From the NCBI GenBank assembly GCA_022646745.1, contig CP060262.1, positions 270,001-302,000 of the forward strand: a stretch of DNA of 32,000 nt, given 5' to 3'. Below, piece by piece: positions 5,342 to 23,389 of this stretch; position 1 is the first letter of the stretch, and every line of letters starts with the position of its first letter. Source of the stretch: Planctomycetales bacterium (GTDB lineage: Bacteria > 4484-113 > JAFGCY01). The position numbers and the translations under genes are program-made. The notes beneath the pieces were generated by a model. That model saw nothing but the letters and a program-made list of their open reading frames with translations. It was not told the DNA's origin and did not search any database.

Positions 5342-5369
5342 GGGATGGGGGATGTGGGACGGGGTATGC
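5342..5369 (+). repeat. Heptanucleotide array gggatgg/gggatgt/gggacgg/ggtatgc (G-quadruplex-type G-tracts)
   Basis: Four consecutive 7-nt units. The G3-N2-G5-N4-G3-N2-G4 pattern spans 5342-5364. Confidence 0.7.
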
Positions 5370-5437
5370 GCAGATGTGAATACAGGTATGAGGGAAGAAG
5401 GATGCCAATCCCACATCTTACATTCACACTGATCCCC

Positions 5438-5493
5438 GGTCCCTGGTCCCAGGTCCCTGTTTTGCCCATCCCGCATACCGCATACCGCATCCC
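5438..5493. repeat. Eight-unit heptanucleotide array abutting the aspS stop codon
   Basis: Units ggtccct ggtccca ggtccct gttttgc ccatccc gcatacc gcatacc gcatccc, all in one 7-nt phase. The complement carries G-tracts. Confidence 0.8.
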
Positions 5494-7268
5494 TACTTGA
5501 GCGGCTGCAGGCGCAGTTCCCACCACTGCTCCTGTTCGATCGTGGCCGGTGCGCCGGTCAGCGGGCACTGCGCGCTGGCGGTCTTCGGGAAGGCGATCAC
5601 CTCGCGGATGTTGTCAACCTGCAGCAGGCTCATCACCAGGCGGTCGATGCCCTGGCCGTAGCCACGGTGCGGCGGCGCGCCATAGCGGTAGGCCTCGAGG
5701 AACCAGCCGAAGCGGTGCTCGATCTGCTCGTCGCTCAGGCCCATGTTGCGCAGGATACGCATCTGCAGCGCCGGGTCGAACACCCGCAGGCTGCCCGATG
5801 CCATCTCCACGCCGTTCAATACCATGTCATAGTTGTCAGCGCGGATCGACAGCAGCTCGTCAATGTCCGTACTGTCCAGCTTGTGCATGTCGGCTGCCAG
5901 CGGATTGGTGAAGGCGTGGTGCGCAGCCGTCACCCCGCCGGTCTCGTCATTGATCTCATACAGCGGGAAGTCCACCACCCACATCGGTGCCCACTTCGAC
6001 CTGTCAATCAGGCCCTGGGCATCGCCAAGCCGCAGGCGCAGCTCGCCGAGCACCTTGAGGTTCTTGGCCTTCGGCCCGAGCACCATGCACCAGGTGCCGG
6101 CATTCGTGCCCTCTGCTTCAGTGGCAAGCTTGGCAAAAGCCGCGATGTCCGGCGCGAACTTCGCCACGCTGCCCTTCGGCTCATCGCCGCCGGTCTCGAC
6201 CGTCATCAGGCCGTTGGCACCGAGCTTCTTCGCCACGTCCGTCCAGTTGTCAAGTTCCTTGCGGCTCAGGCTCAGGCCCGGGATGAAGATCCCGTGCACC
6301 ACGCCGCCCTCCTCAAGCCCGGCCGTCACGAAAGCCGCCTCCGTGCCCTGCCACAGCGCTGTCACCTCGCGGATCTCGCTGCCGAAGCGTGCATCCGGCT
6401 TGTCGGAGCCCCAGCGCTCGATCGCCTCGTTGTAGGGCACGCGCGGGAAGGGCACCGGCAGCTCCTCGCCGATGCACTCCGCCCAGATGCGCTTCATGTA
6501 GCCTTCGCCCATCGTGAACAGCTCCTCCCGCGTGGTGAAGCTCATCTCAAGGTCGAGCTGCGTATGCTCCGGCTGGCGGTTGCCACGCAGGTCCTCGTCA
6601 CGCAGGCACTTGGCAATCTGGAAGTAGCGGTCCATCCCCGAGCACATCAGCACCTGCTTGAACAGCTGCGGGCTCTGGGGCAGGGCGTAGAACTGGCCGG
6701 GATGCACGCGGCTGGGCACGACGTAGTCACGCGCGCCCTCGGGCGTGGTGTTGGCCAAAAGCGGGGTCTCGATCTCGAGGAAGCCCAGCTCGCTCAGGTA
6801 GTCACGGATGATGCGCACCACCTGGTGGCGGATCGCGATGTTGCGCACCATCGTGCGCCGGCGCAGGTCGATGTAGCGGTGCTTGAGGCGCAGTTCCTCG
6901 GAAGCCTTGACTTCCTCCTCAATCACGAAGGGCGTGGTCTCGGCGCGGCTGAGGATCTCAGCTGACTGCACGATGAACTCACGGTCGCCGCCCGGGCCCT
7001 CGCGCTGCTCCTTCTCGGGACGGGCGCGCGTCACGCCGGTGAAGGCCACTACGAACTCGCCGCGGCACTCAGAGGCCACGGCGTGCGACTCGGGGCTCTC
7101 CTCCGGGTCGAGGGTGCACTGCAGCTCACCCCAGCGGTCACGGAGGGTGATGAAGATCAGCTGCCCAAGGTCACGGCGACGGGCCACCCAGCCCATCAGT
7201 GTGGCTGCGGTGCCGATCGGCGCCGCGATGATTTCTTCGATGTTATGTGTGCGCGTGAGTTCAGCCAT
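5493..7268 (-). CDS. aspS: Aspartate--tRNA ligase (bacterial type)
   Basis: 591 aa. N-terminal OB-fold (GWVARRRDLGQLIFITLRDRWG), class II motifs (FRDEDLR-like CLRDEDLRGNRQPEHTQLD, GGVTAAHHAFT, GLDRLVM-like GIDRLVMSL) and the bacterial insertion domain. Confidence 0.95.
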   Translation of the reverse strand: MAELTRTHNIEEIIAAPIGTAATLMGWVARRRDLGQLIFITLRDRWGELQCTLDPEESPESHAVASECRGEFVVAFTGVTRARPEKEQREGPGGDREFIVQSAEILSRAETTPFVIEEEVKASEELRLKHRYIDLRRRTMVRNIAIRHQVVRIIRDYLSELGFLEIETPLLANTTPEGARDYVVPSRVHPGQFYALPQSPQLFKQVLMCSGMDRYFQIAKCLRDEDLRGNRQPEHTQLDLEMSFTTREELFTMGEGYMKRIWAECIGEELPVPFPRVPYNEAIERWGSDKPDARFGSEIREVTALWQGTEAAFVTAGLEEGGVVHGIFIPGLSLSRKELDNWTDVAKKLGANGLMTVETGGDEPKGSVAKFAPDIAAFAKLATEAEGTNAGTWCMVLGPKAKNLKVLGELRLRLGDAQGLIDRSKWAPMWVVDFPLYEINDETGGVTAAHHAFTNPLAADMHKLDSTDIDELLSIRADNYDMVLNGVEMASGSLRVFDPALQMRILRNMGLSDEQIEHRFGWFLEAYRYGAPPHRGYGQGIDRLVMSLLQVDNIREVIAFPKTASAQCPLTGAPATIEQEQWWELRLQPLK

Positions 7269-7290
7269 AGCGCAGGAATTGTATCGTGCC

Positions 7291-7309
7291 GCGAGGCCTG
7301 TGGCCTCGC
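7291..7309. other. Perfect 8-bp hairpin GCGAGGCC-TGT-GGCCTCGC between CDS 7323-8108 and aspS
   Basis: Seen directly in the sequence. No U-tract follows, so a terminator function is uncertain. Confidence 0.4.
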
Positions 7310-7311
7310 TT

Positions 7312-7380
7312 GAGGTTGGAGGTTAGAGGTTGGAGTTTGGAAAGAATGGAGATATCGCTAACTCCCCACTCCAAACTCCA
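7312..7380. repeat. Inverted pair of heptamer arrays (gaggttg x4 at 7312-7339; aactccc/cactcca/aactcca at 7360-7380)
   Basis: 7-nt phasing is visible. TGGAGTTTGG (7331-7340) is the exact reverse complement of 7371-7380. The arrays overlap the last ~19 codons and the stop of CDS 7323-8108. Confidence 0.75.
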
Positions 7381-8108
7381 GCCTTTGCCTCGGGGATTCC
7401 TGTCCCGGTAAAGGTTTCCTTCAGTACTGACCCATTTGACTTGCCGTAGATCCTTACCCAGAGCCTGTCCCAGGGGGCGAGGGTATGCCAGATACAAACA
7501 TCATTGTCCATGTCTGGCTGCATGCGGATTCCCAAGCCCGGAAAATCATGATGCATCTCGAGATTGATTGCCAGGCTGTTCCAGTCTGGATTGTCAAAAC
7601 TGTCGATGTACTTCCCGGTTGCCGGATTGAAGGCCAGCAGGGCCGGGATTGCAGGGTCGCCCGGTTCAAGATTGCGCAGCTGCTCCAGTGCATCCAGCAT
7701 CTCATCAGGTTCAGGTTCAATACCAAGGACCAGTTTGAGTCCATTACGGGGCAGGCAGTGATGGACTGCGTAGTAATATCCTGCCTCCTTGACCAACAGG
7801 TTTGGCCAGTTGTCTGTGTACCACTTGATTGTCAACACGCTGTCAACGAGCAATTCCTCACGGGATGCTGAGGAGTTTGGAGTGTTGCCACTTCCGGGGC
7901 CGTACGTGTTTGGACTTCGCGGGCCAGCATGACCATGCAAAGCATTCCACTCAAACCAGTCTGAGAGATCCAGTTCGCGGAACTGCTGCTCAATATCCGT
8001 TGCTTCAGTCGCGCTCGCTGTCGACGGGGCTGCGGCCAGGAAGCACACGAAGCAGAATATTCCCGCCAGAAATCGAAGTTCTGAGCTTTGGAAACTTGCA
8101 GTGCACAT
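7323..8108 (-). CDS. Secreted protein of unknown function (signal peptide), lower GC than surroundings
   Basis: N-terminal hydrophobic segment FLAGIFCFVCFLAAAPSTASA followed by a hydrophilic body. No recognisable motif. GC is about 47-55% in the 60-nt lines I hand-counted. Confidence 0.6.
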   Translation of the reverse strand: MCTASFQSSELRFLAGIFCFVCFLAAAPSTASATEATDIEQQFRELDLSDWFEWNALHGHAGPRSPNTYGPGSGNTPNSSASREELLVDSVLTIKWYTDNWPNLLVKEAGYYYAVHHCLPRNGLKLVLGIEPEPDEMLDALEQLRNLEPGDPAIPALLAFNPATGKYIDSFDNPDWNSLAINLEMHHDFPGLGIRMQPDMDNDVCIWHTLAPWDRLWVRIYGKSNGSVLKETFTGTGIPEAKAGVWSGELAISPFFPNSNL

Positions 8109-8231
8109 GATCTTTTCCCATCCAGAAGCGCAAGGAGATCACTTTTGTTTTACCCAAGCTCAAAGGTGGTAAGCAAGCACGTGCGTTCTACGTGTACAAG
8201 ACAAGTGCGCAGGTCGGAACAGGGCTTGGCC

Positions 8232-8263
8232 ACTCCAAACTCCCCACTCCAACCGCCAAACTC
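8232..8263. repeat. Heptamer array actccaa/actcccc/actccaa/ccgccaa/actc
   Basis: 7-nt phase. Shares the exact 15-mer AACTCCCCACTCCAA (8238-8252) with 7360-7374. Confidence 0.75.
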
Positions 8264-8264
8264 A

Positions 8265-8305
8265 TTGCCAGGCTTACAGCCTGGCCGCCGTTACTCCCTA
8301 CACCC
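8265..8305. repeat. 3'-end hairpin module, copy 1 (TTGCCAGGCTTACAGCCTGGCC...CTCCCTACACCC)
   Basis: The first 22 nt are identical, except for 1 loop nt, to 12733-12754, and the TCCC(C)TACACCC tail is shared. Lies just 3' of the BI-1 gene (minus strand). Confidence 0.7.
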
Positions 8306-8311
8306 GAGCTC

Positions 8312-9043
8312 CTAGTTCCTGTTCAGCTTGCTCAAAAGGCGCAGCACTTCGATGTACAGCCAGACGAGCGTGACAACCAGGCCCATCGCTCCGTACCACT
8401 CGAAGTAGCCCGGCAGGCCGTAGCTTTCGCCGCGCTCGATGAAGTCGAAGTCCAGCAGCAGGTTGAAGGCCGCAAGACCGATCACGAACAGGCTGAAGGC
8501 GATGCCGATCGGGCCGCCGTCGTGGATGTAGGGCACCATGATGCCAAAGAAGCTCAAAACGAAGGTCAGCAGGTAGACCGCCATCACGCCGAATGTGGCG
8601 ATGATCACGATGCTGCGCAGCTTGTCAGTCACCTGAATGATGCGGCCGGTGTACAGGCCGAGCATCACCATCAGGATCGCAATCGTGATAACCACGGCCT
8701 GCGGCACCATCTGCGCATATGCGCCGGGCACCATCGTGGCCATCACCAGGCTGAATGCGCCGACGAACACGCCTTCCACCAGCGCGTAGATCGGCGCCAG
8801 GATCGGGGAGGCCTGCGGCTGGAAGTAGGACCAGAACACCATGATCACACCGGCGATCATCGAGCCGATCAACAGCGGGAAGCCGATGGCCGGGTTGGCC
8901 GCCACGGCGCTCCAGGACCAGACGGCGGTGAACAACAGCAGGAGCAGCAGCAGGCCGGTCTTGAGCACCGTGCCCTGCACGGACATGCGCCCGGAACCGC
9001 TCAGTTCCTGTACACGATCTTCGTTGAACATCGGATTCGCCAT
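8312..9043 (-). CDS. Bax inhibitor-1/YccA family membrane protein
   Basis: About 7 TM segments. N-terminal MSVQGTVLKTGLLLLLLL and C-terminal LVWLYIEVLRLLSKL are typical of the family. GAGGT lies before the ATG at 9043. Confidence 0.75.
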   Translation of the reverse strand: MANPMFNEDRVQELSGSGRMSVQGTVLKTGLLLLLLLFTAVWSWSAVAANPAIGFPLLIGSMIAGVIMVFWSYFQPQASPILAPIYALVEGVFVGAFSLVMATMVPGAYAQMVPQAVVITIAILMVMLGLYTGRIIQVTDKLRSIVIIATFGVMAVYLLTFVLSFFGIMVPYIHDGGPIGIAFSLFVIGLAAFNLLLDFDFIERGESYGLPGYFEWYGAMGLVVTLVWLYIEVLRLLSKLNRN

Positions 9044-9109
9044 TGCTTACCTCACTGCCATTAATGACTGTTCCACAGGCCCTCTGTTCAGGCCTGATAC
9101 TCAGTATAT

Positions 9110-9871
9110 ATGCATGGCGTGTCTATAATGTTTCCCGTGAGGAAGGCAATCACAGTACTGCTGGCACTGTGCCTGGTGCTTGGCACCCGGCTACCGGTAT
9201 ATGCGGGCATCCTCGATGAGGTGCAGCTGGAGTTCATCAGCGGTGATGTGACCGGCGACCAGCGCGGCCAGGGCACGGCCACGGTCAGCGCGCGGATCAC
9301 CAACATCGGCGACCGCAATCTCAACGGCGTGCGCATCGCCGCCTACTACTCCCCCTACGACACCTTCCCGGATGAGTTCGCTGAATGGAAGCTGCATGAG
9401 TTCCTGCTGGAGCCACCGCTCAAGCCCGGCAAGAGCGTGGTGCTGGAATTCCAGGATGACAAGGCCTTCGAGTACATCCAGCTTGAGCTGCGGCGGGCCA
9501 ACTTCGACCTGCGCATCGTCGTGAACGGCAAGCAGCTCGCCAGCGAGGGGCTGGTACGCATCGAGGACGGTGCGGCCTACATGCAGAGCCGCGACCTCGT
9601 GGGCATCATCGGTGGCGACCTGAAATATGACGCAGAGGCGGACCGCGTGGAACTCAAGCGCGGGGAGCGCGTGCTGCTCTACAAGGAGGGCCGCCGCAGC
9701 ATCGACGTCAACGAGGAACGCCGCGCGCTGAGCCATCCGGTGATCACCATCGAAGGCCGCACCTGGGTGCCGATCGAAAGCATCTGCAGGGAACTGGAGA
9801 TCGAATGCGAGATCGACCACAGCCTCAATGTGCTGACCCTGACCTTTGAGCCGCTGCCTGAGGAGAACTGA
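9110..9871 (+). CDS. Secreted protein: CARDB-like N-terminal domain plus copper-amine-oxidase-N-terminal-like (stalk) domain
   Basis: Signal peptide RKAITVLLALCLVLGTRLPVYA; VSARITNIGDRNLNGVRIAAYY...LKPGKSVVLEF; VVNGKQL...ITIEGRTWVPIESICRELEIE. The start is ambiguous (ATG 9110, ATG 9128 or GTG 9137). Confidence 0.55.
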   Translation: MHGVSIMFPVRKAITVLLALCLVLGTRLPVYAGILDEVQLEFISGDVTGDQRGQGTATVSARITNIGDRNLNGVRIAAYYSPYDTFPDEFAEWKLHEFLLEPPLKPGKSVVLEFQDDKAFEYIQLELRRANFDLRIVVNGKQLASEGLVRIEDGAAYMQSRDLVGIIGGDLKYDAEADRVELKRGERVLLYKEGRRSIDVNEERRALSHPVITIEGRTWVPIESICRELEIECEIDHSLNVLTLTFEPLPEEN

Positions 9872-10603
9872 TCAGACCTTCTGCGCACAGCGCAGCTCGG
9901 CCAGCATCTTCGTTCCGGTGCCCAGGGCATCAGGTGCTGTCATCAGCACTTCACCACCATTCTCAATGGTCCAGATGGCGGCCTGGTTGGCCATGTCCAC
10001 ACCAGCGAAATTCAGGCGCATCTCGTCGTTGAGCCCCTTGCCGGTTCCGCTGATGCGGCAGTCCCGGCTGATGAACAGCAGTTCCACCTCACCGTTCTGT
10101 GCTGCATCCAAAACGTCCTGCAATTCGAGGGCGATATCCTCCGGAGCGGCTTCCGCCTCCGGATCAATTCTCTCCTGCAGTGCCGCCAGCCGGCTGTTCG
10201 TCTCTTCCGCCAGTACTTCTTCCTCGTCCACCCGCTCCAGTAGGGGCCGGATGTGGAACACTGTCTTGACCGAAACCTGCTCCATCGGCGCACTGCCCAG
10301 GATGAAGCGCGCACTGTAGCCGGGGCTGGCAAACAGCCCCATCCCCGGGGCATTCTTGCCGAAAGAAGCCAGGCTGGTCAGCCGGGATATGCTCTTCAGG
10401 AGTTTTTCCGCTTGCTTTTCACTTAATCCGCGGCTTGAAAGCAGGCGCATCGCCATGCCGAGCATGCTTTCCAGACGTTCTGCGGGAGTGGATCCGGTTC
10501 CGTCCTCTTCAAGGCTCAGGTATATGGATACGCAGGGATCGCCAGCGTGTGAAACAAGGTCCCTGATGGCACTGGTATCTATTGGGATCGAGTATTTGTC
10601 CAT
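9872..10603 (-). CDS. baeRF-family protein (bacterial homolog of archaeo-eukaryotic release factor eRF1/Pelota fold)
   Basis: N-terminal IRDLVSHAGDPCVSIYLSL, GMGLFASPG, FHIRPLLE, and C-terminal DAAQNGEVELLFIS...ENGGEVLM...AELR. These match my recollection of baeRF family signatures. ATG at 10603. Confidence 0.55.
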   Translation of the reverse strand: MDKYSIPIDTSAIRDLVSHAGDPCVSIYLSLEEDGTGSTPAERLESMLGMAMRLLSSRGLSEKQAEKLLKSISRLTSLASFGKNAPGMGLFASPGYSARFILGSAPMEQVSVKTVFHIRPLLERVDEEEVLAEETNSRLAALQERIDPEAEAAPEDIALELQDVLDAAQNGEVELLFISRDCRISGTGKGLNDEMRLNFAGVDMANQAAIWTIENGGEVLMTAPDALGTGTKMLAELRCAQKV

Positions 10604-10664
10604 ATTATATTTTAACGTCTCGACACTCGGAGCATGTGAAACACCCAGGACAGGGTCGTCCCGG

Positions 10665-11519
10665 CTAGCTGTCCGGGCTGTCCGGGGCATGTCCAGCGAG
10701 GCCTCGGTTCACCTCCAGCTCGCCGTCCTGCGGGATGTCCGCCCCCAGCTCATGCATCATTTCACCGCAGTGGTTGATGAACACGTCGCGTGTGCGCCGT
10801 ACGTTGCTGCCGAGCTCCGTGGTGACCAGCGACAGGAACAGCAGGCCAAGCACGATCTTGACCGGGATGCCGACGAAGAACACGTTCAGCTGCGGCATCA
10901 CGCGGGCCAGGATGCCGAGCGCGAGGTCGATCAGGATCAGGAATGCAATCAGCGGCAGGGAGATCCTGAGCGCGATGGTGAACAGGCTGGTACAGATCGC
11001 GACCATCGTCTGGGTGTCGAAATGCTCGATCATCCAGGTGCCGGGCGGCAGCAGTTCGTAGCTGGCGATCCACAGCCTGAGCAGCTCGAGGTGCATCCCG
11101 GTACCGACGAACACGAGCATCGCGGCGGTGAACAGGAACTGCCCGATGATGCTGGCCTGGGTATGGGTGCTCGGGTCGAATACATTCACGACCGCGAAAC
11201 CCATCTGGTAGCCGATGAACTGGCCGGCGAACTGGAAGGCGACGAACACCAGCGCCATGATGAATCCCAGCAGCATACCAAGCGCTAGCTCCTGCACGGC
11301 GGAGGCGAGGAACATCGAGTCGTCCAGCAGCCTGAGCTGCGCGGTCGGCACGTAGAAGGTGTAGACGATGTTGGAGAGCAGGAAAGCCAGCACCACGCGC
11401 AGCATCACGGGCACGCCCTGGGCACTGAATATCGGCGCCAGGAACACGAATCCCATCGTACGCAGCAGTATCAATAACCAGAGCAGGCCAAGCTGCCCCA
11501 GGTAGTCAGTCAGTTCCAC
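10665..11519 (-). CDS. fliR: Flagellar/type III export apparatus protein FliR (SctT family), orphan
   Basis: GQFIGYQMGFAVVNVFDP and LALGILARVMPQLNVFFVGIPV align with E. coli FliR. The GTG start at 11519 is preceded by GGAGAG. The 544-aa ORF in the track is an upstream over-extension. Confidence 0.85.
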   Translation of the reverse strand: MELTDYLGQLGLLWLLILLRTMGFVFLAPIFSAQGVPVMLRVVLAFLLSNIVYTFYVPTAQLRLLDDSMFLASAVQELALGMLLGFIMALVFVAFQFAGQFIGYQMGFAVVNVFDPSTHTQASIIGQFLFTAAMLVFVGTGMHLELLRLWIASYELLPPGTWMIEHFDTQTMVAICTSLFTIALRISLPLIAFLILIDLALGILARVMPQLNVFFVGIPVKIVLGLLFLSLVTTELGSNVRRTRDVFINHCGEMMHELGADIPQDGELEVNRGLAGHAPDSPDS

Positions 11520-11702
11520 TTCTCTCTCCACAGAGATGATATTGGGTCTGCGGTCGAAACTGAACCAAATCCAGGTCAAGCCTGCCGGCTGAACCTTGAT
11601 TTCATGCTGCAGCGTAGGGATAGCGGGGGTATATTGTGTTGCCCGCAAGGGCAGCGGCCGGGCTGCGAGCGTCCGGGAACGTGCTAATATCCAGAGTTTC
11701 CG

Positions 11703-12335
11703 ATGAGCGAGACCTCCAGCCTGAGCATTTCCGCACGCACTCCGATCGAGGAGGTGCGCTTCAGCGTGCTGGATCTCGAGACCACCGGCGGGGCACCGCC
11801 CGAGCACAAGATCACGGAAATCGCCGCCTACCACGTGGACGGCCTGCAGATCACCGACGAGTTCGTGACCCTCGTCAACCCCGAGCGCAACATCCCCGCC
11901 TTCATCACCGGCCTGACCGGCATCAACGAGAAGATGGTGAAGGACAAGCCACCCAGCCGCGACGTGCTGCCGGAGCTGCAGGTGTTCCTCGGCGACAGCA
12001 TCCTCGTGGCGCACCACAGCCAGTTCGACCGCCGCTTCCTCGAGAACGAGCTGGAGCTGATGGGCGAGCGCACACTGCACAACGGCGACCTCTGCACCTC
12101 GCGTCTGGCGCGCCGCATCGTGCCCTGGCTGCCCTCGAAGAGCCTTGGCAACCTGGCGGCCTTCTTCGGGATCAGCATCCCGGACCGCCACCGCGCGGCG
12201 GGCGATGCCTACGCCACGAGCGAACTGCTGATCATCTTCCTGAAGTACCTCAAGAGCCGCGGACTGGACACCATCGACCAGGTGATGGAGTTCCAGCACG
12301 GCGAGATGCCCTACCCGACCGACGGCGACGACTAG
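11703..12335 (+). CDS. DEDDh 3'-5' exonuclease (DnaQ / DNA pol III epsilon-like)
   Basis: ExoI VLDLETTG, ExoII VAHHSQFD, ExoIII HRAAGDAYAT. Confidence 0.85.
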   Translation: MSETSSLSISARTPIEEVRFSVLDLETTGGAPPEHKITEIAAYHVDGLQITDEFVTLVNPERNIPAFITGLTGINEKMVKDKPPSRDVLPELQVFLGDSILVAHHSQFDRRFLENELELMGERTLHNGDLCTSRLARRIVPWLPSKSLGNLAAFFGISIPDRHRAAGDAYATSELLIIFLKYLKSRGLDTIDQVMEFQHGEMPYPTDGDD

Positions 12336-12362
12336 GAGGTGCGCAATTTACTTGCGCACAAT
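12335..12362. repeat. REP hairpin element, copy 3 (GGAGGTGCGCAATTTACTTGCGCACAAT)
   Basis: Same architecture as 3682-3712. A C>T change in the left arm is matched by a G>A change in the right arm (compensatory). Confidence 0.8.
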
Positions 12363-12384
12363 GGGGTGCAGCGATTGAAAGAGG

Positions 12385-12419
12385 TAGTTAGTTGTTAGTA
12401 CTTAGTTCTTAGTTCTTGT
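12385..12419. repeat. Heptamer array tagttag/ttgttag/tacttag/ttcttag/ttcttgt (TAG every 7 nt)
   Basis: TAG at 12389, 12396, 12403 and 12410, which covers all three plus frames. The complement carries TAA in each unit. Confidence 0.8.
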
Positions 12420-12477
12420 TGGCAGCGGCACGCTGACTGATTGACTCCTTGTCTGTTTGGCAACTGATCGGTAGAAC

Positions 12478-12512
12478 CACTAATCACTAATAACTAACAA
12501 CTAAGAACTTCC
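12478..12512. repeat. Heptamer array cactaat/cactaat/aactaac/aactaag/aacttcc (TAA every 7 nt)
   Basis: TAA at 12481, 12488, 12495 and 12502. Imperfect inverted repeat of 12385-12419 (12-nt exact core TTAGTTGTTAGT). Confidence 0.8.
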
Positions 12513-12533
12513 CCTATGTAGCTTGCCAATGAT

Positions 12534-12582
12534 GTAGGGTGGCGGTAACACCGCCACCGGGATGGGGTGTTACCCCATCCCT
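12534..12582 (+). repeat. 49-nt GTAG-double-hairpin element, copy A
   Basis: GTAG, then stem GGTGGCGG/CCGCCACC (loop TAACA), then stem GGGATGGGG/CCCCATCCC (loop TGTTA). Identical to 16761-16809 except for 1 nt. Confidence 0.85.
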
Positions 12583-12665
12583 GCTTCCGCAAAAGAAGTC
12601 TTCGCAGGATTTTGCGGCAGCAAGTGCCGCTCCTGCCGGCTGCTGGAAGCAGCCGCTACAGTCTT

Positions 12666-12705
12666 CTGCTTCTGATTCTGCTTCTGATTCTGCTTCTGAT
12701 TCTGC
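12666..12705. repeat. Tandem 12-mer CTGCTTCTGATT x3.3
   Basis: Three perfect copies plus a partial copy, read directly from the sequence. Confidence 0.9.
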
Positions 12706-12708
12706 CCA

Positions 12709-12732
12709 CTGCCTACTGCCTACTGCCTACTG
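12709..12732. repeat. Tandem heptamer CTGCCTA x3.4
   Basis: Perfect copies. On the minus strand this gives TAG every 7 nt, immediately 3' of the gene ending at 12759. Confidence 0.9.
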
Positions 12733-14461: not shown

Positions 14462-16557
14462 ACCTGCTGCCTCTCCTTCAGCTGCGTGATGCGCCCCTGC
14501 CAGAGGTCCGCTTCCTCGATCAGCGGCTCCAGCGACCCGAACACCTCGTCCCGTTCATTGCCAAGTTCATCGATCTGCAGCTGCAGCGTGGCGATCCGTT
14601 CGTAATCTGATGCCGCGTCAACACTGTGCTGCTCGTCCGCGAGCTGCCGGATGCGCCGCTCCAGCTCCTCGATCGTCAGTTCCACCTGGGCGATCCTCTG
14701 CTCAACCTTTTCCTGCTGGCGGCGGCAGTAGCCCTCCACATTCGTGCGGGCTTCCTTCGCCGCCTGCTCAAGCATCGTCCATTCGTCATCTTCAGCGTTG
14801 CCATTTCCGCTGTCCCGCGCGGCCTGTGCATTCTGTTCGGCGAGCATCGCCTCACGGAATCGGCGGTACTCGCTGTAATGCCCGCGGAAGAATGACGAGC
14901 TGAAGTTGTCAGCCTCCCCCTCGCGCTCGAACACCACCAGCCGGTTGCAGATCCGCTCCAATAGCGCGCGGTCATGGGTCACCATGATCAGCGAACCCTC
15001 GTAGGCCAGCAGGAACTGCTCCAGCGCTTCACGCGCCCAGATGTCGAGGTGGTTCGTCGGCTCATCCAGCAGCAGTACGTTCGGGCGGCGGCGGAAGATC
15101 TTTGCCAGCGTCAGGCGGCTGCGTTCGCCACCACTGAGCTGCTTGACGTCCTTGAACACCTCGTCGCCACTGAAGCCGAACACCGCGAGGTAACTGCGCA
15201 CCTCGCCATCCGTCAGGTTGCCATCCACGCTGCGCAGTTCCGCCATCAGGTCGCGCCCGTCCTGCAGGTCAGCGCTGTCCTGTGAGAACACGCCGACATC
15301 GGCATTGCTGCCCCAGGCCACCATCCCGCGCAGGGGCGCCAGCCGGCGGGCCAGCAGCTTCAAAAGCGTACTCTTGCCGCAGCCATTGCTGCCGACGATG
15401 CCCATCCGTTCGCCGCGGTACAACTGGAAATCCACGTCATCCAGCAGCAGGCCGTCGCCAACCGGGCCGCGCGCCATTTCCATCGGCGGGTTGAGCGCCA
15501 GGCCGGAATGCCCGACCTTCTCATATACCTTTTCCTCGGAGCGCTCCAGCCCGCTGTAGCTGAAGCAGAGCTGCTCCACGATCAGCAGCTGTTCGCCCGA
15601 CAAAAGCGCGGGCTTCAGCACGAAGCTCATCTGCGGGTCGTCCGCCGGCCGGTCCACGCGCTCCATCCGCCCGAGCAGCTTGCGCCGGCCCTGGGCCTGC
15701 TTGGTGTTCTGCCCGGCGATGTTGCGGCGGATGTACTCCTCGGTCTTGGCGATATGCTCCTGCTGCTTCTGGAACTGGTCCAGCTCGGCACGCCGCCTGA
15801 GGTCACGCTGCGGACGGTACTTCGTGTAGTTGCCGGGATAGCGGAACAGGCCCTGGTTGTCAACTTCCCAGATATGTGTGCAGACGCTGTCCAAGAGCCA
15901 GCGGTCGTGGCTGACGAGGATCACGCCTGCCCGGCCGCGCAGGCTCTTCAAGTAGTCCGCGAAGAATTCCTGGGCTTCGATGTCCAGGTGGTTGGTCGGC
16001 TCGTCGAAGATCAGGCAGTTGGCATCGCTGATCAGCGCGCGGGCCAGGCAGGCCTTCTGGCGCTGTCCGCCGCTCATGCTGCCCAGCGTCTGGTTGTGCT
16101 GCTCGTCGGTGAAAGACAGGCCGCTGATGATACGGTCGATGTCAGTCTCCCAGCGGTGCCCGTCCAGCACGGCGAAGCGCTCCTGTACGCTGCCGAGCTC
16201 AGCCTGCAGCGCTTCGTCCTCAGGCCTGTGCTCCAGCTCGCGCACGAGCTTGCCCATCCGTTCCTGCAGTTCGACGAGGTCCGCCCGGCCGCCGCGCACG
16301 AATTCACGCAGGGTGTCCGTGTCGGTGCCACCGGAGGACTGGGTGACGATCGTGATCTGCGTGCCGCGGCTGACCTGGATATTGCCCGCCTCAGGGGTGA
16401 GCCGGCCCTCGATCAGCTTCAGGAGCGTGGTCTTGCCACCGCCGTTCTGGCCCACGAGCCCGATCACATTGCCCGGCTGCAGCTGGCCGCTGGCATCGCG
16501 GATGATGTATTCATCGGTGTAACCGAAGCTCAGGTTTGAGAATTCAAGCAGGGACAC
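14458..16557 (-). CDS. ABC-F family ATPase (two ABC cassettes, no TM domain, C-terminal coiled coil; Uup-like)
   Basis: Walker A GQNGGGKTT and GSNGCGKST, signatures LSGGQRQK and LSGGERSR, inter-domain linker, C-terminal heptad-rich tail. GTG start at 16557. Confidence 0.9.
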   Translation of the reverse strand: MSLLEFSNLSFGYTDEYIIRDASGQLQPGNVIGLVGQNGGGKTTLLKLIEGRLTPEAGNIQVSRGTQITIVTQSSGGTDTDTLREFVRGGRADLVELQERMGKLVRELEHRPEDEALQAELGSVQERFAVLDGHRWETDIDRIISGLSFTDEQHNQTLGSMSGGQRQKACLARALISDANCLIFDEPTNHLDIEAQEFFADYLKSLRGRAGVILVSHDRWLLDSVCTHIWEVDNQGLFRYPGNYTKYRPQRDLRRRAELDQFQKQQEHIAKTEEYIRRNIAGQNTKQAQGRRKLLGRMERVDRPADDPQMSFVLKPALLSGEQLLIVEQLCFSYSGLERSEEKVYEKVGHSGLALNPPMEMARGPVGDGLLLDDVDFQLYRGERMGIVGSNGCGKSTLLKLLARRLAPLRGMVAWGSNADVGVFSQDSADLQDGRDLMAELRSVDGNLTDGEVRSYLAVFGFSGDEVFKDVKQLSGGERSRLTLAKIFRRRPNVLLLDEPTNHLDIWAREALEQFLLAYEGSLIMVTHDRALLERICNRLVVFEREGEADNFSSSFFRGHYSEYRRFREAMLAEQNAQAARDSGNGNAEDDEWTMLEQAAKEARTNVEGYCRRQQEKVEQRIAQVELTIEELERRIRQLADEQHSVDAASDYERIATLQLQIDELGNERDEVFGSLEPLIEEADLWQGRITQLKERQQV

Positions 16558-16693
16558 GGCAGCGTGCCTATTCTAACAGGGCAGCCAGCCACGCGCCGGA
16601 TATGCAGTGTTAAAGGGGAGCTGCTGCGAAGTTGCACCATCGGAGGTGCGGCGCAAGCCGGACATGGAGGTAGAGCGCAATCTTGGCGCTGAA

Positions 16694-16728
16694 GCAATGA
16701 GCAGTGAAGACTGAGCAATGAGCCAATC
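16694..16728. repeat. Heptamer array gcaatga/gcagtga/agactga/gcaatga/gccaatc (TGA every 7 nt)
   Basis: TGA at 16698, 16705, 16712 and 16719, one per unit, which covers all three plus frames. Confidence 0.8.
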
Positions 16729-16760
16729 CACAGAAGCGCAGTTTCGGCGCAAACGATGAC

Positions 16761-16809
16761 GTAGGGTGGCGGTAATACCGCCACCGGGATGGGGTGTTAC
16801 CCCATCCCT
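16761..16809 (+). repeat. 49-nt GTAG-double-hairpin element, copy B
   Basis: Same sequence as 12534-12582 with C>T in loop 1. Weaker similarity continues for about 35 nt downstream (…TGCGRCAGCAAGTGSCGC…). Confidence 0.85.
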
Positions 16810-16891
16810 ACTTCATGCTACGAATGAGCCGCATTATTGTGCGACAGCAAGTGGCGCACCACCGTAACCTGTTTGGTCCGGGCTGCCTCCC

Positions 16892-17749
16892 CTACTCCTG
16901 CTTTCCCTCCAGCCTGTCCAGCCGCTCATTGATCTCATCGAGCTTGCAGATCAACTTGTGGCTCAGGCGCTCCAGCTTCACGTCGATTTCCTCGACCTCC
17001 TCGCTGATCTCCTCCACCTCGTCCTCTGTGCGCGCCGCGATGTCATGCGACATCTCGTCCACGAACACGGCGTTTAAGAGCGAGAGGATCACGATCCCGC
17101 CGAAACTGACCGCGAAAATGAAGTACAGCCGGATCAGGTGCGCCTTGATGCCGGTGCTGTGGGCAGCGATGTTGTCACTCATCTCGTACCAGCCCTCGAT
17201 CGTGAAGATCTTGAACATGGTGTACATGCTCAAAAGCGGGTCGGAGAACTCCGGGTAGAGCCTGACAACCGCGCCGCTGGCATCGACCGTGGTCTGGTAG
17301 CCGAACATGTAATGTGCGCTCAGCCCGAAGATGAACAGGTAGCAGAACACCAGCATGAAGATCCCGACGCTGGCCTTCAGCGCACGCTTGCCGCCGATCA
17401 TCAGGCGCTCGATGTTCGGGATGAAGCGCATCAAGCGCAGGAAGCGCAGCAGGCGCAGCAGCCTGAGCAGCGTGAACAGCGCGGGCGCCCCGGTGAACAG
17501 CGAAGGCAGGCTGACGACGACGATGCCAAGGTCGAACAGGTTCCAGGGGTCGCCGAAGTAGCCCTTGATCCCCTGGAAGCGCATCTTGAGCACCGCTTCC
17601 AGGATGAAGTAGACTACACATAATGAGTCAATCGCCAGCAGTGCCGGGCCGGCGGACAGCCTGAGCGTGGGGAAGGCCTCAAGGAACAGCACGAGCGCAT
17701 TGAGCAGGATCACGAACAGGATCACTCTCTCGCTGATCAGCCTGCGCAC
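16892..17749 (-). CDS. Single-domain (6-TM) voltage-gated cation channel, BacNaV/NaChBac-like, with C-terminal coiled coil
   Basis: S4 segment LLRLLRLLRFLRLMRF (5 Arg at every third position), pore FKIFTIEGWYEMSD, S6, then an acidic neck plus heptad coiled coil. GTG start preceded by GGAGG. Confidence 0.85.
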   Translation of the reverse strand: MRRLISERVILFVILLNALVLFLEAFPTLRLSAGPALLAIDSLCVVYFILEAVLKMRFQGIKGYFGDPWNLFDLGIVVVSLPSLFTGAPALFTLLRLLRLLRFLRLMRFIPNIERLMIGGKRALKASVGIFMLVFCYLFIFGLSAHYMFGYQTTVDASGAVVRLYPEFSDPLLSMYTMFKIFTIEGWYEMSDNIAAHSTGIKAHLIRLYFIFAVSFGGIVILSLLNAVFVDEMSHDIAARTEDEVEEISEEVEEIDVKLERLSHKLICKLDEINERLDRLEGKQE

Positions 17750-17839
17750 CGCGTGCCTCCACCATCATGCATGCCGCTTATCCTACAGCAGGCCGTGCCC
17801 GGCGCAGCGTTGCCAAAAAAATTCCGCTGGTAATCCAGC

Positions 17840-17867
17840 TTGAAACTTCGCTTAACATATGTATAAT
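17840..17867 (+). promoter_or_regulatory. Near-consensus sigma70-type promoter TTGAAA-16 nt-TATAAT
   Basis: -35 at 17840-17845 and -10 at 17862-17867. Lies in a 500-nt AT-rich non-coding region about 390 nt upstream of dnaB. Confidence 0.5.
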
Positions 17868-18150
17868 CCATTCTTGTGGGACAGTCCATCCGCAAAATTT
17901 CCGTTCTTATTTTGGGACGTTATTTGAGACAAACTGTTTCCCATGCGGATTGATTTTCATATTTTCCGGCAAGTGGGCACAGCTCGGCAGTTCTATCAAC
18001 TTGAATTGGGTTGATAAGTTGACAGTTTTGCGGATATCCGCATTTCACGTCGCGTGAAAGTGCGGAGACGGTTGAAAGCTGGCAACAGCCTGTTTGGCAA
18101 CGTGCCCGCTGTTGATTGCCGTGCACGCTGCAGTCAAGCTGCATGCGGGT

Positions 18151-18178
18151 TTACCATGGATTTAATTTGCGATATGAT
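18151..18178 (+). promoter_or_regulatory. Possible dnaB-proximal promoter TTACCA-16 nt-TATGAT
   Basis: Hexamers read directly from the sequence, about 78 nt upstream of the dnaB start. Confidence 0.3.
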
Positions 18179-18255
18179 CGCTCTCCAGAAGCAGCTGGGG
18201 CACGTGGTGGGGCCTCATTTCTGGGTGGATCAACATCGGAAACAGGAGCAAGGCT

Positions 18256-19704
18256 TTGGCTGTTTACAGGGATGACAACATTCAGGAGCACGTGCATGAC
18301 CGCACGCCGCCGCAGAATGTTGACCTCGAGATGTGCGTGCTGGGCGCGATCATGCTCGAACCCAAGGAGGCATTCCCACTCGCGCAGGACTACCTCAACC
18401 GGGATTCCTTCTACCTCGACGGACACGGGATCATCTTCGAACTGATGGGGGAGCTGTTCAACCGCGGCATCCCGCCTGACAGCGTGGCCGTGCTTGATGA
18501 GCTGCGCAGCCGTGGCCAGATGGAGCGCGTCGGCGGCAGCGCGGTGGTGATGGGAATGCTCAACTCCGTGCCGACCGCTGCCAACGTGGAGTACCACGCC
18601 CGCAAGGTAGCCGAGAAGGGCCACCTGCGCAAGCTGATCCGCACCTGCACGGAGATCGTTGACGAATGCTACCGCCAGGAGCTGTCCCTCGAGCAGGTGG
18701 TGGACCGCGCGGAATCCGGCATCCTCAAGATGAGCACCAACACCGGCAGGAACCGGATGGACAGCATCAGCGAGGTGCTGCGCGAATACTGGGAGAAGCT
18801 CAGCACGCGCGATGAGGAGCTGCGCCAGCGCCGCAATGCCGGTGAGCCGAACCCGAAGATCTCCGCCGGACTGCCAACCGGCTTCCGCGACCTAGACCAG
18901 ATGATCGGCGGCCTGCGCGAAAGTGAGCTCCTGATCCTCGCCGCCCGTCCTTCGATGGGTAAGTCCGCGCTGGCACTGAACTTCATGCACAACGTGTCCG
19001 TGCTGAACTCGATCCCGACGGCGATCTTCAGCCTTGAGATGGGTGCCGACCAGATGGCGGAGCGCCTGATGACCCAGGGCACGATGTACACACGGCACAA
19101 CCGCATCCAGGGTGTCTCCAGCGGCCGGCTGCAGAATCCGGACCTCTCGGACCTCGAATGGAACGTGCTGACCCAGAGCTACAACAAGCTGGTGTCAGCC
19201 CCGATATATATTGACGACAGCAGCGTGCTGACGATCGGCATGCTCAAGAGCAAGGCGCGCCGCCTCTACACGCAGTACGGCATCCGCTGCATCATCGTGG
19301 ACTACCTGCAGCTGATGAGCGGCCCCAACAGCGGCGGTGACAACCGCGTGCAGGAGGTCAGCGAGATCAGCCGCGGCCTGAAGCAGATCGCGCGTGAGCT
19401 GCGCATCCCGGTGATCGCGCTGTCCCAGCTCAGCCGCCAGGTGGAAAGCCGCACGAGCAAGAAGCCGCAGCTGTCCGACCTGCGTGAATCCGGCGCGATC
19501 GAGCAGGACGCGGACATCGTGATGTTCATCCACCGCGAGGACTACTACCAGGAGAAGACGCAGGACTTCAGTGTCGATGCGGACTACGACCGCCACACGC
19601 TGCCGGATGCGGACCTGATCGTCGCCAAGAACCGTAACGGCCCGACCGGCCTCGTCAAGATGCGCTTCTTCAAGGAGATCACCAGGTTCCTGGAGCCGAT
19701 GTAG
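18256..19704 (+). CDS. dnaB: Replicative DNA helicase DnaB
   Basis: N-terminal PPQNVDLEMCVLGAIML, Walker A AARPSMGKSA, SLEM, DYLQLM and SQLSR motifs. TTG start at 18256 lies 7 nt after AGGAG. No intein. Confidence 0.95.
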   Translation: MAVYRDDNIQEHVHDRTPPQNVDLEMCVLGAIMLEPKEAFPLAQDYLNRDSFYLDGHGIIFELMGELFNRGIPPDSVAVLDELRSRGQMERVGGSAVVMGMLNSVPTAANVEYHARKVAEKGHLRKLIRTCTEIVDECYRQELSLEQVVDRAESGILKMSTNTGRNRMDSISEVLREYWEKLSTRDEELRQRRNAGEPNPKISAGLPTGFRDLDQMIGGLRESELLILAARPSMGKSALALNFMHNVSVLNSIPTAIFSLEMGADQMAERLMTQGTMYTRHNRIQGVSSGRLQNPDLSDLEWNVLTQSYNKLVSAPIYIDDSSVLTIGMLKSKARRLYTQYGIRCIIVDYLQLMSGPNSGGDNRVQEVSEISRGLKQIARELRIPVIALSQLSRQVESRTSKKPQLSDLRESGAIEQDADIVMFIHREDYYQEKTQDFSVDADYDRHTLPDADLIVAKNRNGPTGLVKMRFFKEITRFLEPM

Positions 19705-21089: not shown

Positions 21090-21150
21090 TCTTCACCGGG
21101 ATTGCACCTCGTTTTAGCACCACGGGTCAGCAGTGCGGTTAGCATTTCAC

Positions 21151-21468: not shown

Positions 21469-21497
21469 CCTGAGCGGCTCAGATCACCTGAATCACC

Positions 21498-21528: not shown

Positions 21529-21735
21529 CGCATAAAGCTCCCTATCATGACGTTCATGGATTACCTCAACGAGTTGTCCCTCAGGCTGAAGCAGTCCTTC
21601 ACCAGGCTGCGCCGCAGCATGCTTGGACGGCTGGTCGCGGCCCTGTTCAACAGGATCGCCGGAAATACCCGCTGAATTCAGCGGAGCCATCGAACAGGGC
21701 CGGGATTTACCCTGTCCTTATAAGGAGCTGCAACC

Positions 21736-22626
21736 ATGGCCAACAGGCTCATGCAGGAGGCACTGCGAGCTTCCAGCAGGTTCATTGTCGCCACCCTGGC
21801 CGCACTTTCCGTCACGGGATGCAATAACCAGGCAGTCGGCAATGGTAAGGAACTAGAGGCTGTCCCGAGTGGACAGACGGGGGCAATCGAGAAGGAGGAT
21901 TTCGGCATGATGCTGGAAAGAACTGAGCTCGAAGTGTCCGACGAGACCGTCGGCTCGCGCGAGTTCAACGGTATCTCCGAAGTGGAGCTGCGGATCAACA
22001 ACGGAGAAGTCACCATCAACCAGGATGACAGCCTGGCTCCCGGCACCGTGAAGATCGGCTGGGAAATCCGGCGCAACGGCCGCAAGGTGCGTGGCAAGCG
22101 CAGCGGCCTCGAGATCTACTTCAACCATGAGGATGACACCCTCGGCGTCGAGGATGAACGCATCGGCAACGGCACCCGCGTGCCGGACCTGCACCTGAAG
22201 GTTTCCATGGCCCCCGGCATCAGTGTCGAGACAAGCCTCGGCAACGGCGAGATCAAGGCCAGCGCTGACTTCATCGACGGCCTGGACCTCGGCAACGGCA
22301 ACATCAGCTTCCACGGCTCGCTGCGCAAGGGCGCGGACATCCACCTCGGCAACGGCATGCTGACCGGTGACCTGATGGGCGTGTCCGGCCGCCACAGCAT
22401 CTACGTCGGGAACGGCAATGTCGACATCGACGTGGCTGACGGCGTGAACTGCAACCTGAACGGCAGCGTGGCGATCGGCAGCATCGACTTCCACGGCAAG
22501 CTCAAGGGCAGCGTGGCCCGCCAGGGCTACATCGGTGCCACCGCCACCGCGCAGATCGGCGAGGAAGCCGGCAACCTGCTGAGTGTGGACATCGGCAACG
22601 GCGAGCTGCAGATCGGCAGCAACTGA
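21736..22626 (+). CDS. Lipoprotein with GNG-repeat beta-helix region (DUF4097 / putative-adhesin-like)
   Basis: Lipobox LSVTGC, AAGGAG at 21721-21726, repeated LGNGEI / LGNGNI / LGNGML / VGNGNV / IGNGEL units. Confidence 0.55.
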   Translation: MANRLMQEALRASSRFIVATLAALSVTGCNNQAVGNGKELEAVPSGQTGAIEKEDFGMMLERTELEVSDETVGSREFNGISEVELRINNGEVTINQDDSLAPGTVKIGWEIRRNGRKVRGKRSGLEIYFNHEDDTLGVEDERIGNGTRVPDLHLKVSMAPGISVETSLGNGEIKASADFIDGLDLGNGNISFHGSLRKGADIHLGNGMLTGDLMGVSGRHSIYVGNGNVDIDVADGVNCNLNGSVAIGSIDFHGKLKGSVARQGYIGATATAQIGEEAGNLLSVDIGNGELQIGSN

Positions 22627-22662
22627 GCCGTCCCAACTTCACTTGAAATAAGCAATGTAAAT

Positions 22663-22705
22663 GGTCGGTACTCCTAAGACCATGACCGGATCAGGAGTAC
22701 CGACC
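22663..22705 (+). promoter_or_regulatory. Perfect 13-bp inverted repeat sequestering the RBS of the first FMN reductase gene
   Basis: GGTCGGTACTCCT (22663-22675) and AGGAGTACCGACC (22693-22705) with a 17-nt loop. The right arm contains the SD AGGAG and ends 1 nt before ATG 22706. Confidence 0.6.
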
Positions 22706-23263
22706 ATGCGCATCCTCGCCTTCTCCGCTTCCCTGCGAAAGGATTCCCTCAACGGCAAGCTGATTGAAATCGCTGCCCGCCTTGCCCGTGAACATGGCGC
22801 TGAGGTGGACCTGGCTGACTTCTCCGAACTCGTGATGCCCAACTACAACTTCGATGTGGAGAAGCAGGGCTTCCCGCAGGAGTGCATCGCGCTGGGTAAG
22901 CGTGTGGAAGGCGTGCAGGGCATCATGGTCTCCACCCCGGAGTACAACCATTCCTTCCCCGGCACCCTGAAGAACTCCCTCGACTGGCTGTCCCGCCTGC
23001 GTCCGATGCCGCTGCGCGGCAAGTGCGTGCAGATCCTCAGTGCTGCCCCATCGCTTGTTGGCGGCAACCGGGCCGCCGAAGCGCTGAGCACCCCGCTGGA
23101 AGTGCTCGGGATGCATGTGATGCCAGACCGCTTCTCCCTCAACACCGCCAATGAGGCCTTTGATGAGCAGGGCGAACTGCTTGACCCGAAGCGACTGGAA
23201 CGGCTTGACGGAGCAATCCAGTACTTCCTGCGCGTGGTAAAGAGCATGCAGCTGATGGACTAG
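22706..23263 (+). CDS. NAD(P)H-dependent FMN reductase family flavoprotein, paralog 1
   Basis: MRILAFSASLRKDSLN, VSTPEYNHSFPGTLKNSLDW. Confidence 0.8.
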   Translation: MRILAFSASLRKDSLNGKLIEIAARLAREHGAEVDLADFSELVMPNYNFDVEKQGFPQECIALGKRVEGVQGIMVSTPEYNHSFPGTLKNSLDWLSRLRPMPLRGKCVQILSAAPSLVGGNRAAEALSTPLEVLGMHVMPDRFSLNTANEAFDEQGELLDPKRLERLDGAIQYFLRVVKSMQLMD

Positions 23264-23368
23264 GATAGGCCGCAGGGCTCTGGCCGGGGGCCTGCCAGTG
23301 TTACGGCGCTGTCTCATCAAATCACCCACTAGGCCATCACCAGCGGCCAGCGGACTTGAACCAGGCCT

Positions 23369-23389
23369 CTGGGCTCAGGGCTCGGGCCT
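23369..23389. repeat. Heptamer array ctgggct/cagggct/cgggcct
   Basis: Three 7-nt units in phase within the intergenic spacer. Confidence 0.5.

Follow-up and report, generated by a model that had tools for sequence, protein, structure and literature searches.

Heptanucleotide tandem arrays and REP-like hairpin elements in the intergenic spacers of a UBP7-related bacterium

Period-7 arrays in the window

The 32,000-nt stretch analysed here (contig CP060262.1, positions 270,001 to 302,000; hereafter the window, numbered from its first letter) encodes flagellar export (FliR) and housekeeping proteins (AspRS, BaxI-like, ABC-F) as well as a REP-associated tyrosine transposase (RAYT; REP, repetitive extragenic palindromic). 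Its intergenic spacers hold short tandem arrays of 7-nt units together with small REP-like hairpins (Table 1). The period-7 arrays are real and statistically strong, and they are probably not isolated microsatellites but one class of module among the hairpin elements of these spacers.

Arrays were called with Tandem Repeats Finder (TRF), whose period-7 rows in the window are listed in Table 1. They agree with the main coordinates of a first-pass annotation that had been made from the letters of the same DNA and had proposed pervasive 7-nt arrays between genes. TRF rows of period 6, 9 and 12 lay nearly all within open reading frames (ORFs). The repeats at 7360-7380 and 8232-8263 fell under the TRF score threshold and were visible as 7/14-nt repeats when the sequence was read; the 15-mer AACTCCCCACTCCAA reported as common to 7360-7374 and 8238-8252 is exact. 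In a separate period scan of the window, four period-7 arrays reached a score of at least 12, against 0.00 in dinucleotide-preserving shuffles.

Recurrence of short words was counted as a function of lag. For exact 4-mers in the window spacers the counts were 103 (lag 7), 20 (lag 6) and 15 (lag 8). Intergenic DNA pooled from the window and a conspecific metagenome-assembled genome (MAG), 10.1 kb in all, gave 198 exact 5-mer recurrences at lag 7 versus 9.8 in shuffles. The comparison of period 7 with periods 6 and 8 that had been recommended was run on these sampled spacers and gave 25 at lag 6 and 34 at lag 8; harmonics appeared at lag 14 (141) and lag 21 (78). Coding DNA (57 kb) showed 3-nt periodicity alone. 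Among 60 arrays from 16.8 kb of intergenic DNA of the lineage, 34 had period 7 and seven the runner-up period 9. Array density was 2.0 per kb in intergenic versus 0.06 per kb in coding DNA. The over-representation of period 7 refers to a sample of about 110 kb of DNA.

The arrays of the lineage sample are imperfect and have a median size of 4.3 units (about 30 nt), a peak that partly reflects a bias of the detection threshold. With at least three head-to-tail copies of a 7-nt unit, they qualify as heptanucleotide long simple sequence repeats.

Several statements of the first-pass annotation had to be narrowed. The period had been described as strict, but 7 nt is only dominant: units of 6, 8, 9, 10 and 12 nt are also present, including the 12/6-nt array at 12663-12705 and arrays of 8, 9 and 10 nt in the MAG. 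Of the 14 window spacers that are 60 nt or longer, 6 contain arrays, fewer than the "nearly every spacer" of the annotation; the divergent window spacers at 11520-11702 and 17750-18255 contain none. The eight units counted at 5438-5493 are two distinct arrays, held in phase by one 7-nt linker. At 3637-3667 the proposed TAG-N4 phase is visible, but the pattern is too degenerate to be called an array. Units do differ between loci, several being present in the window, yet unit families recur across the genome and are thus not unique to a locus.

Table 1. Arrays, hairpins and the RAYT gene in the window.
Feature	Position (strand)	Unit or sequence	TRF period-7 call	Remarks
Array	5342..5368	GGGATGG x3.9	5342-5368	C-rich on sense (-) strand; part-complementary to 5467-5490; G-quadruplex motif on + strand
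Array	5429..5459	CTGGTCC x4.4	5429-5459	Sense (-) strand GGGACCN, a G3N4 repeat; potential G-quadruplex; 34 nt past AspRS stop codon
Array	5467..5490	CATACCG x3.4	5467-5490	3 nt past AspRS stop codon; sense strand G-rich
Array	7312..7341	GAGGTTG x4.3	7312-7341	Left hairpin arm with 7360-7383; also complementary to 8234-8264
Array	7360..7383	ACTCCAA/ACTCCCC	under threshold	14-nt super-period; right arm of 7312 hairpin; overlaps final codons of 261-aa ORF 7323-8108
Array	8232..8263	ACTCCAA/ACTCCCC	under threshold	Downstream of BaxI-like gene; in sense orientation comes after hairpin 8265-8290
Array	12385..12419	TTAGTTC x4.3 to 5	12388-12417	Left arm of long hairpin
Array	12475..12512	AACNACT x5	12475-12509	Right arm of hairpin with 12385..12419; pair kept in L004
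Non-heptamer array	12663..12705	TTCTGCTTCTGA x3.5		12-nt unit (2 x 6); same spacer as 12702..12732
Array	12702..12732	CTGCCTA x4.4	12702-12732	Sense strand CAGTAGG; 27 nt past stop codon
Array	16693..16728	AGCAATG x4.4 to 5	16693-16723	
Weak array	23362..23389	CAGGGCT x3.9	23362-23387	
Degenerate pattern	3637..3667	TAG-N4		Adjoins REP flanking RAYT gene
RAYT gene	3712-4335 (-)			NCBIfam NF047646, 104.9 bits, cut-off 80; Pfam Y1_Tnp
Inverted REP hairpins flanking RAYT gene	3680-3712 and 4375-4407	GGAGGCGCGCAACTTGCTTGCGCGCAAT		33-nt arms, 97% complementary
REP-like GC hairpin, then CTAC	12637..12659 (+)	CGGCTGCTggaAGCAGCCG		Tandem arrays start directly after
Hairpin GGAGG-stem-loop-stem-CAA	12733..12758 (-)	GGAGGCCAGGCTgtcAGCCTGGCAA		Directly after stop codon at 12759
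Double-hairpin REP doublet, 59 nt	12529..12587; second copy 16756-16814	GTAGGG ... CCCTAC ends		REPIN-like

Independent assemblies and related genomes

The closest genome is 'MAG: bacterium isolate UBP7 HKST-UBA01', UBP7 being an unclassified candidate phylum; a literature search on UBP7 returned nothing related. Contigs of several independent activated-sludge assemblies match the window at 100% identity throughout the spacers that bear repeats, and an identical AspRS is encoded on a 4.1 Mb contig. The arrays are therefore genuine, not an assembly artefact, and their copy number is stable in this population. An origin as assembly artefact or decayed coding sequence can be set aside almost entirely. 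The first of these is ruled out by the window-identical spacers, which recur both in assemblies of several samples and in a contig exceeding 4 Mb, and orthologous arrays were found in the MAG and in two congeners. As to the second, the annotation had rightly held that the arrays are non-coding and that 7, as a repeat period, does not fit codons. What speaks for an artefact is the frequent breakage of short-read contigs in these spacers.

Such breakage was seen among short-read contigs L015-L029, which often end inside repeat-bearing spacers (e.g., L017, L019-L021). Arrays and hairpins thus fragment assemblies of this organism, and MAGs would under-represent them.

Copy number was compared between related strains, as had been suggested, using a MAG contig (L004) whose sequence is orthologous to, and 95-97% identical with, window 11147-19024. 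Relative to window 12663-12732, L004 lacks three CTGCCTA heptamers and 1.5 12-mers, a change by whole units. At the site orthologous to 12702-12732, copy number is 4.4 in the window, about 1 in L004 and about 5 in L010 (CAGTRGG, downstream of a 307-aa gene). The two congeners, L010/L011 and L030, are syntenic (AspRS 88% and 87% identical) and carry arrays in the same spacers as the window, with drifted units and different copy numbers; the orthologous L030 spacer has the same hairpin-plus-array layout as window 8232-8290. L014 (AspRS 69% identical) shows a single inverted pair, GGTCGAT/TTCGACT, and L012 and L013 (70% and 67%) have no arrays in about 3 kb of spacer each. From orthologous arrays, unit differences and a patchy occurrence in relatives it follows that the arrays are long-lived at each locus, resized by whole units and restricted to certain lineages.

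Hairpin elements and the RAYT gene

At least three types of small hairpin are present in the spacers: GGAGG...CAA hairpins, GC-rich single hairpins followed by CTAC, and GTAGGG...CCCTAC double hairpins. A RAYT gene, inverted REP hairpins flanking it and dispersed palindromes with a GTAG foot together place these elements with the REP/BIME-RAYT systems (BIME, bacterial interspersed mosaic element). Each RAYT-flanking arm is itself a hairpin, of type GGAGG and not GTAG. This hairpin has a further copy at 12335-12364, and the MAG and congeners carry copies at several loci. A metagenome scan with the RAYT protein yielded distant relatives only (at most 46% identity), without heptamer arrays, and thus added no sequence of the present lineage.

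The GGAGG family consists of GGAGG, a stem of 6-8 bp, a loop of 3-4 nt, the second half of the stem and CAA. It includes 12335-12364, 12733-12758, 8265-8290 and many L010 and L030 sites. Stems vary between copies yet stay complementary; since the search required a hairpin, this covariation is no independent test. Many of these hairpins start 0-10 nt after a stop codon, for instance TAG/GAGG at 12333-12339, and the conserved GGAGG looks Shine-Dalgarno-like. Arrays follow GGAGG hairpins at window 8232-8290 and 12702-12758 and at the orthologous L030 site.

Hairpins of the form CGGCGGCN-loop-NGCCGCCG+CTAC and GTAGGG double hairpins are dispersed at many loci. The CTAC foot is the complement of the REP-defining GTAG. 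By hand count, about 14 of about 18 intergenic sites with GC hairpin and CTAC carry an array directly after the foot, and the unit varies by site (ACTGACC, CTGCTT, ACTATYCAA, TCTGATG, TAAGAAC). None of 14 copies of the GTAGGG double hairpin has an array tail. The 23-nt core of this double hairpin was found in one of 185,579 species genomes, the UBP7 MAG, at seven sites on six contigs.

L004 contains two insertions relative to the window, one of 105 nt (L004:1196-1300, at window ~12342) and one of 53 nt (L004:5570-5625, at window ~16645). Both are made of GGAGG-type hairpins, and a GAGGT direct repeat borders the 53-nt one. Their absence from the window suggests that small hairpin elements moved recently.

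At L008:4926-5033, a TCGGGTT array is split by a hairpin element of about 47 nt and resumes beyond it. Elhai and co-workers reportedly described, in 2008, small mobile hairpin elements embedded in cyanobacterial heptamer arrays, to which this site bears a likeness. The idea that arrays are repeated 7-bp target-site duplications was rejected, as the L008 arrays have at least three units on each side of the inserted hairpin; it was also counted against this idea that Y1 transposases are not known to make target-site duplications.

Unit families, position and folding

TRF analysis of the MAG loci revealed recurring unit families, namely ACTGACC/ACTGCCY, GGAGTTT/GGAGTGG, AGTTCTT, AGCAATG, GGGAAC, TCGGGTT and CTTCTG. 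The GGAGTKK and ACTGACC families occur at many loci and in congeners. AGCAATG arrays were found at three unlinked loci with unrelated flanks (window 16693, L005:3036, L009:231), with the variant units in identical order (GAGCAAT GAGCAAT GAAGACT GAGCAAT GAGCC); whole arrays have therefore been copied between loci. Variation within arrays is confined mainly to one or two columns of the unit (1/5000), which leaves a 5-nt core and two variable positions. This pattern could be due to duplication of 14-nt double units and was not taken as evidence of selection.

About 7 of about 17 unit families from the window, L005-L010 and L030 can be written as N4-AGT (GGTCAGT, GGGCAGT, TTGGAGT, TCTTAGT, CTGGAGT; 9-mers ...AATAGT), with about 20% expected by chance. 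Two units of the short tandemly repeated repetitive sequences (STRRs) of cyanobacteria, CCCCAGT and CAACAGT, likewise end in AGT, and the form is also contained in the reverse complement of the Beggiatoaceae repeat TAACTGA. The recurrence may reflect a shared sequence preference.

Array position was tallied for 40 arrays outside genes, 35 of them in spacers with called genes on both sides. Convergent spacers hold 17 of these, co-directional spacers 15 and divergent spacers three; divergent spacers account for 22% of the total length. Of the arrays no more than 120 nt from a stop codon, 16 have more G than C on the sense strand and four are C-rich there.

Some arrays had been described as reverse-complement pairs, and inverted pairs that fold into long stems were indeed found. 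Overall they fold at z = -3 to -8 (7300-7392, z -4.4 and -5.8; 12375-12520, z -3.9; L006:4430-4555, z -8.0), and their stems contain 2x2 internal loops, one per ~7-nt unit. Folding of single arrays was no stronger than that of shuffles. A regular-expression search for G-quadruplexes matched four motifs in 10 kb of intergenic DNA versus none in 57 kb of coding DNA. All four overlap arrays (window 5342-5368 and 5429-5459; L008:4926 and L008:5253). By eye, L009:2998 has four G3-4 tracts; most arrays have no G3 tracts.

Intrinsic terminators (GC hairpin plus T-run) were not enriched in window 3000-18500, where 12 were counted versus 9.3 in shuffles, and no canonical terminator was found in this interval at 3' ends bearing arrays or hairpins. 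The arrays are therefore not ordinary U-tract terminators. Rfam searches at gathering and E<=1 thresholds gave no match at any array or hairpin. Provision of stop codons in all three frames was discarded as a purpose, since stop triplets are missing from GGTCAGT, GGAGTTT and other units. Binding sites of the HutP-like UAG-N4 kind were discarded likewise, as TAG is present in only few families, and so were phase-variation repeats, given that no length polymorphism was seen within the population and that the arrays are found 3' of genes with housekeeping roles (AspRS, BaxI, ABC-F).

Comparison with known heptamer and REP systems

STRRs have been known since 1990, with the canonical units CCCCAGT, TTGGTCA and CAACAGT. 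The units found here (GGTCAGT, GGGCAGT, GGAGTTT, TTAGTTC, AGCAATG, etc.) have only the -AGT ending in common with them. The likeness to STRRs drawn by the first-pass annotation nevertheless stands: in both cases there are several 7-nt unit families, they are intergenic, and hairpins can form between genes (PMC2670836). STRR hairpins are suspected to stabilise transcripts (PMC2670836). The present host is not a cyanobacterium, the closest genome being UBP7-labelled and the window encoding FliR; the syntenic neighbourhood in the congeners encodes FliG, FliH, FliI, FliJ and FliF. The arrays are also short, whereas STRR arrays can be long.

STRRs, from AT-rich genomes unlike the present one, had been named as the only bacterial precedent. 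This needs correction, since PMC4679880 and PMC4692102 report heptamers in Xanthomonas, Burkholderia and Actinobacteria, and PMC4679880 reports them in Beggiatoaceae; Xanthomonas and Burkholderia are high-GC precedents, so that a high GC content is not unusual for this class. According to the same two papers, heptanucleotides outnumbered all other long simple repeats in most genomes studied by Mrazek et al. (2007), with Burkholderia, Xanthomonas, Actinobacteria and cyanobacteria among the most repeat-rich. They proposed that about 7 nt corresponds to the DNA segment held by the polymerase, which would favour slippage.

The GGGAATC repeats of Xanthomonas (Rehm et al. 2015, PMC4692102) consist of about 4 units, lie downstream of genes on the coding strand and are rare between divergent ORFs. 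Some form inverted pairs, and loci are conserved with variable length. Experiments on these repeats and on the Nostoc GGGGAYT repeats identified no function (PMC4692102). The arrays described here share with GGGAATC the high-GC host, intergenic and downstream position, about 4 units, a G-rich coding strand, scarcity in divergent spacers, some inverted pairs and conserved loci that vary in length and sequence among relatives, thus nearly all positional traits, and a subset (GGGACCN, AGGGAAC, TCGGGTT) is of the same G3N4 form. They differ in having at least 10 unit families, mostly not G-quadruplex-forming, versus essentially one consensus in Xanthomonas, and in being joined to REP-like hairpins, a link not met in the excerpts of PMC4692102, which were not searched for REP.

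REP/BIME-RAYT systems (Ton-Hoang et al. 2012, PMC3333891; Bertels and Rainey 2011, PMC3116915) likewise have a RAYT gene with inverted REPs, GC-rich palindromes with GTAG/CTAC feet and a mosaic of elements in 3' spacers. Presence/absence differences between strains and tandem amplification that varies per locus are further points in common (PMC3333891, PMC3116915). Classical BIMEs amplify whole REP pairs, however, and heptamer tails on a CTAC foot are not described in the excerpts of PMC3333891.

The Beggiatoaceae repeat TAACTGA of an uncultured marine bacterium forms intergenic direct repeats of 2-6 copies with patchy distribution (MacGregor 2015, PMC4679880). Abundant intergenic heptamers and patchy phylogeny are shared with the present case, and the reverse complement of TAACTGA also contains CAGT. 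This single unit sits mostly just upstream of start codons (PMC4679880), whereas many units occur here, mostly downstream of stop codons.

The window arrays are an addition to the already described class of heptanucleotide repeats, distinguished by the variety of their units and by the junction with REP-like hairpins. The lineage provides a phylogenetically remote, high-GC example in which unusually varied arrays are attached to REP-like hairpins and lie near a RAYT gene.

Origin and possible role of the arrays

We consider it somewhat better than an even chance, with a probability of roughly 0.55, that these STRR-like heptamer arrays are modules of a REP/BIME-like intergenic mosaic downstream of genes, resized by slippage, spread with REP-type elements and tolerated in 3' spacers. 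Strand slippage in replication, the explanation offered in the literature for the favoured 7 nt, would resize the arrays. Their spreading or shuffling may go hand in hand with that of the small hairpin elements, and they would persist where they are harmless, in 3' spacers and not in promoter spacers. Since inverted pairs form long stems, any role of theirs is probably REP-like, as transcript 3'-end structures that stabilise or insulate.

Several points weigh against this interpretation. Many arrays have no adjacent hairpin, and any function of the arrays is putative. By itself, slippage does not say why the unit is 7 nt, why only some lineages are affected or why there are about 4 copies; relatives L012 and L013 are without arrays, a lineage restriction beyond slippage alone. 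MAG loci L005-L009 were retrieved by REP pattern and are thus enriched in repeat-rich spacers, and their gene calls are rough ones based on GC content at third codon positions (GC3). The lag-7 signal was confirmed in the AspRS-retrieved loci L010, L011 and L030.

If the arrays were plain microsatellites, each would have arisen independently at its locus when replication slippage acted on a 7-nt stretch duplicated by chance; mobile elements would play no part, and the arrays would serve no function. Copy numbers that differ by whole units between strains, short and imperfect arrays and the published idea that 7 nt suits polymerase slippage (PMC4679880, PMC4692102) agree with such an origin. We nevertheless regard it as unlikely, in view of the identical variant order of AGCAATG arrays at three unlinked loci, the limited unit vocabulary recurring across loci and species and the arrays that start at ~14/18 CTAC-foot hairpins. 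The strand bias near stop codons (16 vs 4), the concentration of variation in one or two unit columns and the lack of arrays in L012 and L013, related lineages of similar GC content, point the same way. Alternatively, a RAYT or related HUH enzyme might nick single-stranded DNA at C^T in the CTAC foot of an inverted REP and at tail CT sites spaced by 7 nt; subsequent priming and strand transfer could lengthen or shorten an array by 7-nt units, and the arrays would be by-products of RAYT activity. In E. coli, single-stranded DNA is cut by TnpA_REP at C^T, both within CTAC and at CT sites of the linker, and tandem amplification has been modelled in terms of cleavage, priming and strand transfer (both PMC3333891). 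The window contains a RAYT gene, arrays start immediately after hairpin and CTAC, a single hairpin family bears differing tails, and CT is present in every unit on the CTAC strand in 5 of 6 tail families, where chance would give about 0.36 per family. This statistic is based on six families, however, the RAYT-flanking REPs are of GGAGG type and without arrays, the GTAGGG double hairpins are never tailed, and a RAYT is not known to amplify units of only 7 nt. Because many arrays are remote from CTAC hairpins, such an enzymatic origin appears quite improbable. Were it true, it would be the first enzymatic account of 7-nt dominance in cyanobacteria, Xanthomonas and the UBP7 lineage, replacing generic slippage; the junction with REP elements and RAYT makes "why seven?" a testable question about how arrays are generated.

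Selection of the arrays as cis-elements, that is, as periodic binding sites or structures regulating gene 3' ends, was weighed as well. G-quadruplexes, sites for multimeric RNA- or DNA-binding proteins, Shine-Dalgarno-like GGAG repeats and control of Rho loading are candidate functions. A sense strand that is G-rich just past stop codons, the narrow copy number near 4.3 units, the 5-nt conserved core with two variable positions and the excess of G-quadruplex motifs in intergenic over coding DNA (4 in 10 kb versus 0 in 57 kb) would be expected of such elements; arrays are moreover kept at orthologous sites at 87-88% AspRS identity, and canonical terminators are not in excess. The units are too diverse for a single binding protein, though, and only a minority is capable of forming G-quadruplexes or rich in GGAG. 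L004 has nearly lost one array with the flanking genes retained, and no function was found for the Xanthomonas and Nostoc analogues despite experiments (PMC4692102). A selected function of this kind is accordingly judged very improbable, and the mosaic of slippage-resized arrays and REP-type elements remains the preferred interpretation.

Neighbouring features

The slot between the BaxI-like gene and AspRS is occupied in the window by the 261-aa ORF 7323-8108 and in the congeners by a baeRF-family gene (L010:8580-9725, L030:8740-9885). The ORF has a signal-peptide-like start and a GC3 of 0.59 versus about 0.85 in its neighbours. Inverted GGAGTTT/ACTCCAA arrays flank the slot in the window as well as in the congeners; the window arms are 31 nt long and 81% complementary.

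Direct repeats of 51 nt are present in window 25135-27162, in five copies that are 61-73% identical to the reference copy. They lie within the minus-strand ORFs 24174-25910 and 25917-27695, neither of which has a Pfam or NCBIfam match, and probably represent a repeated protein motif.

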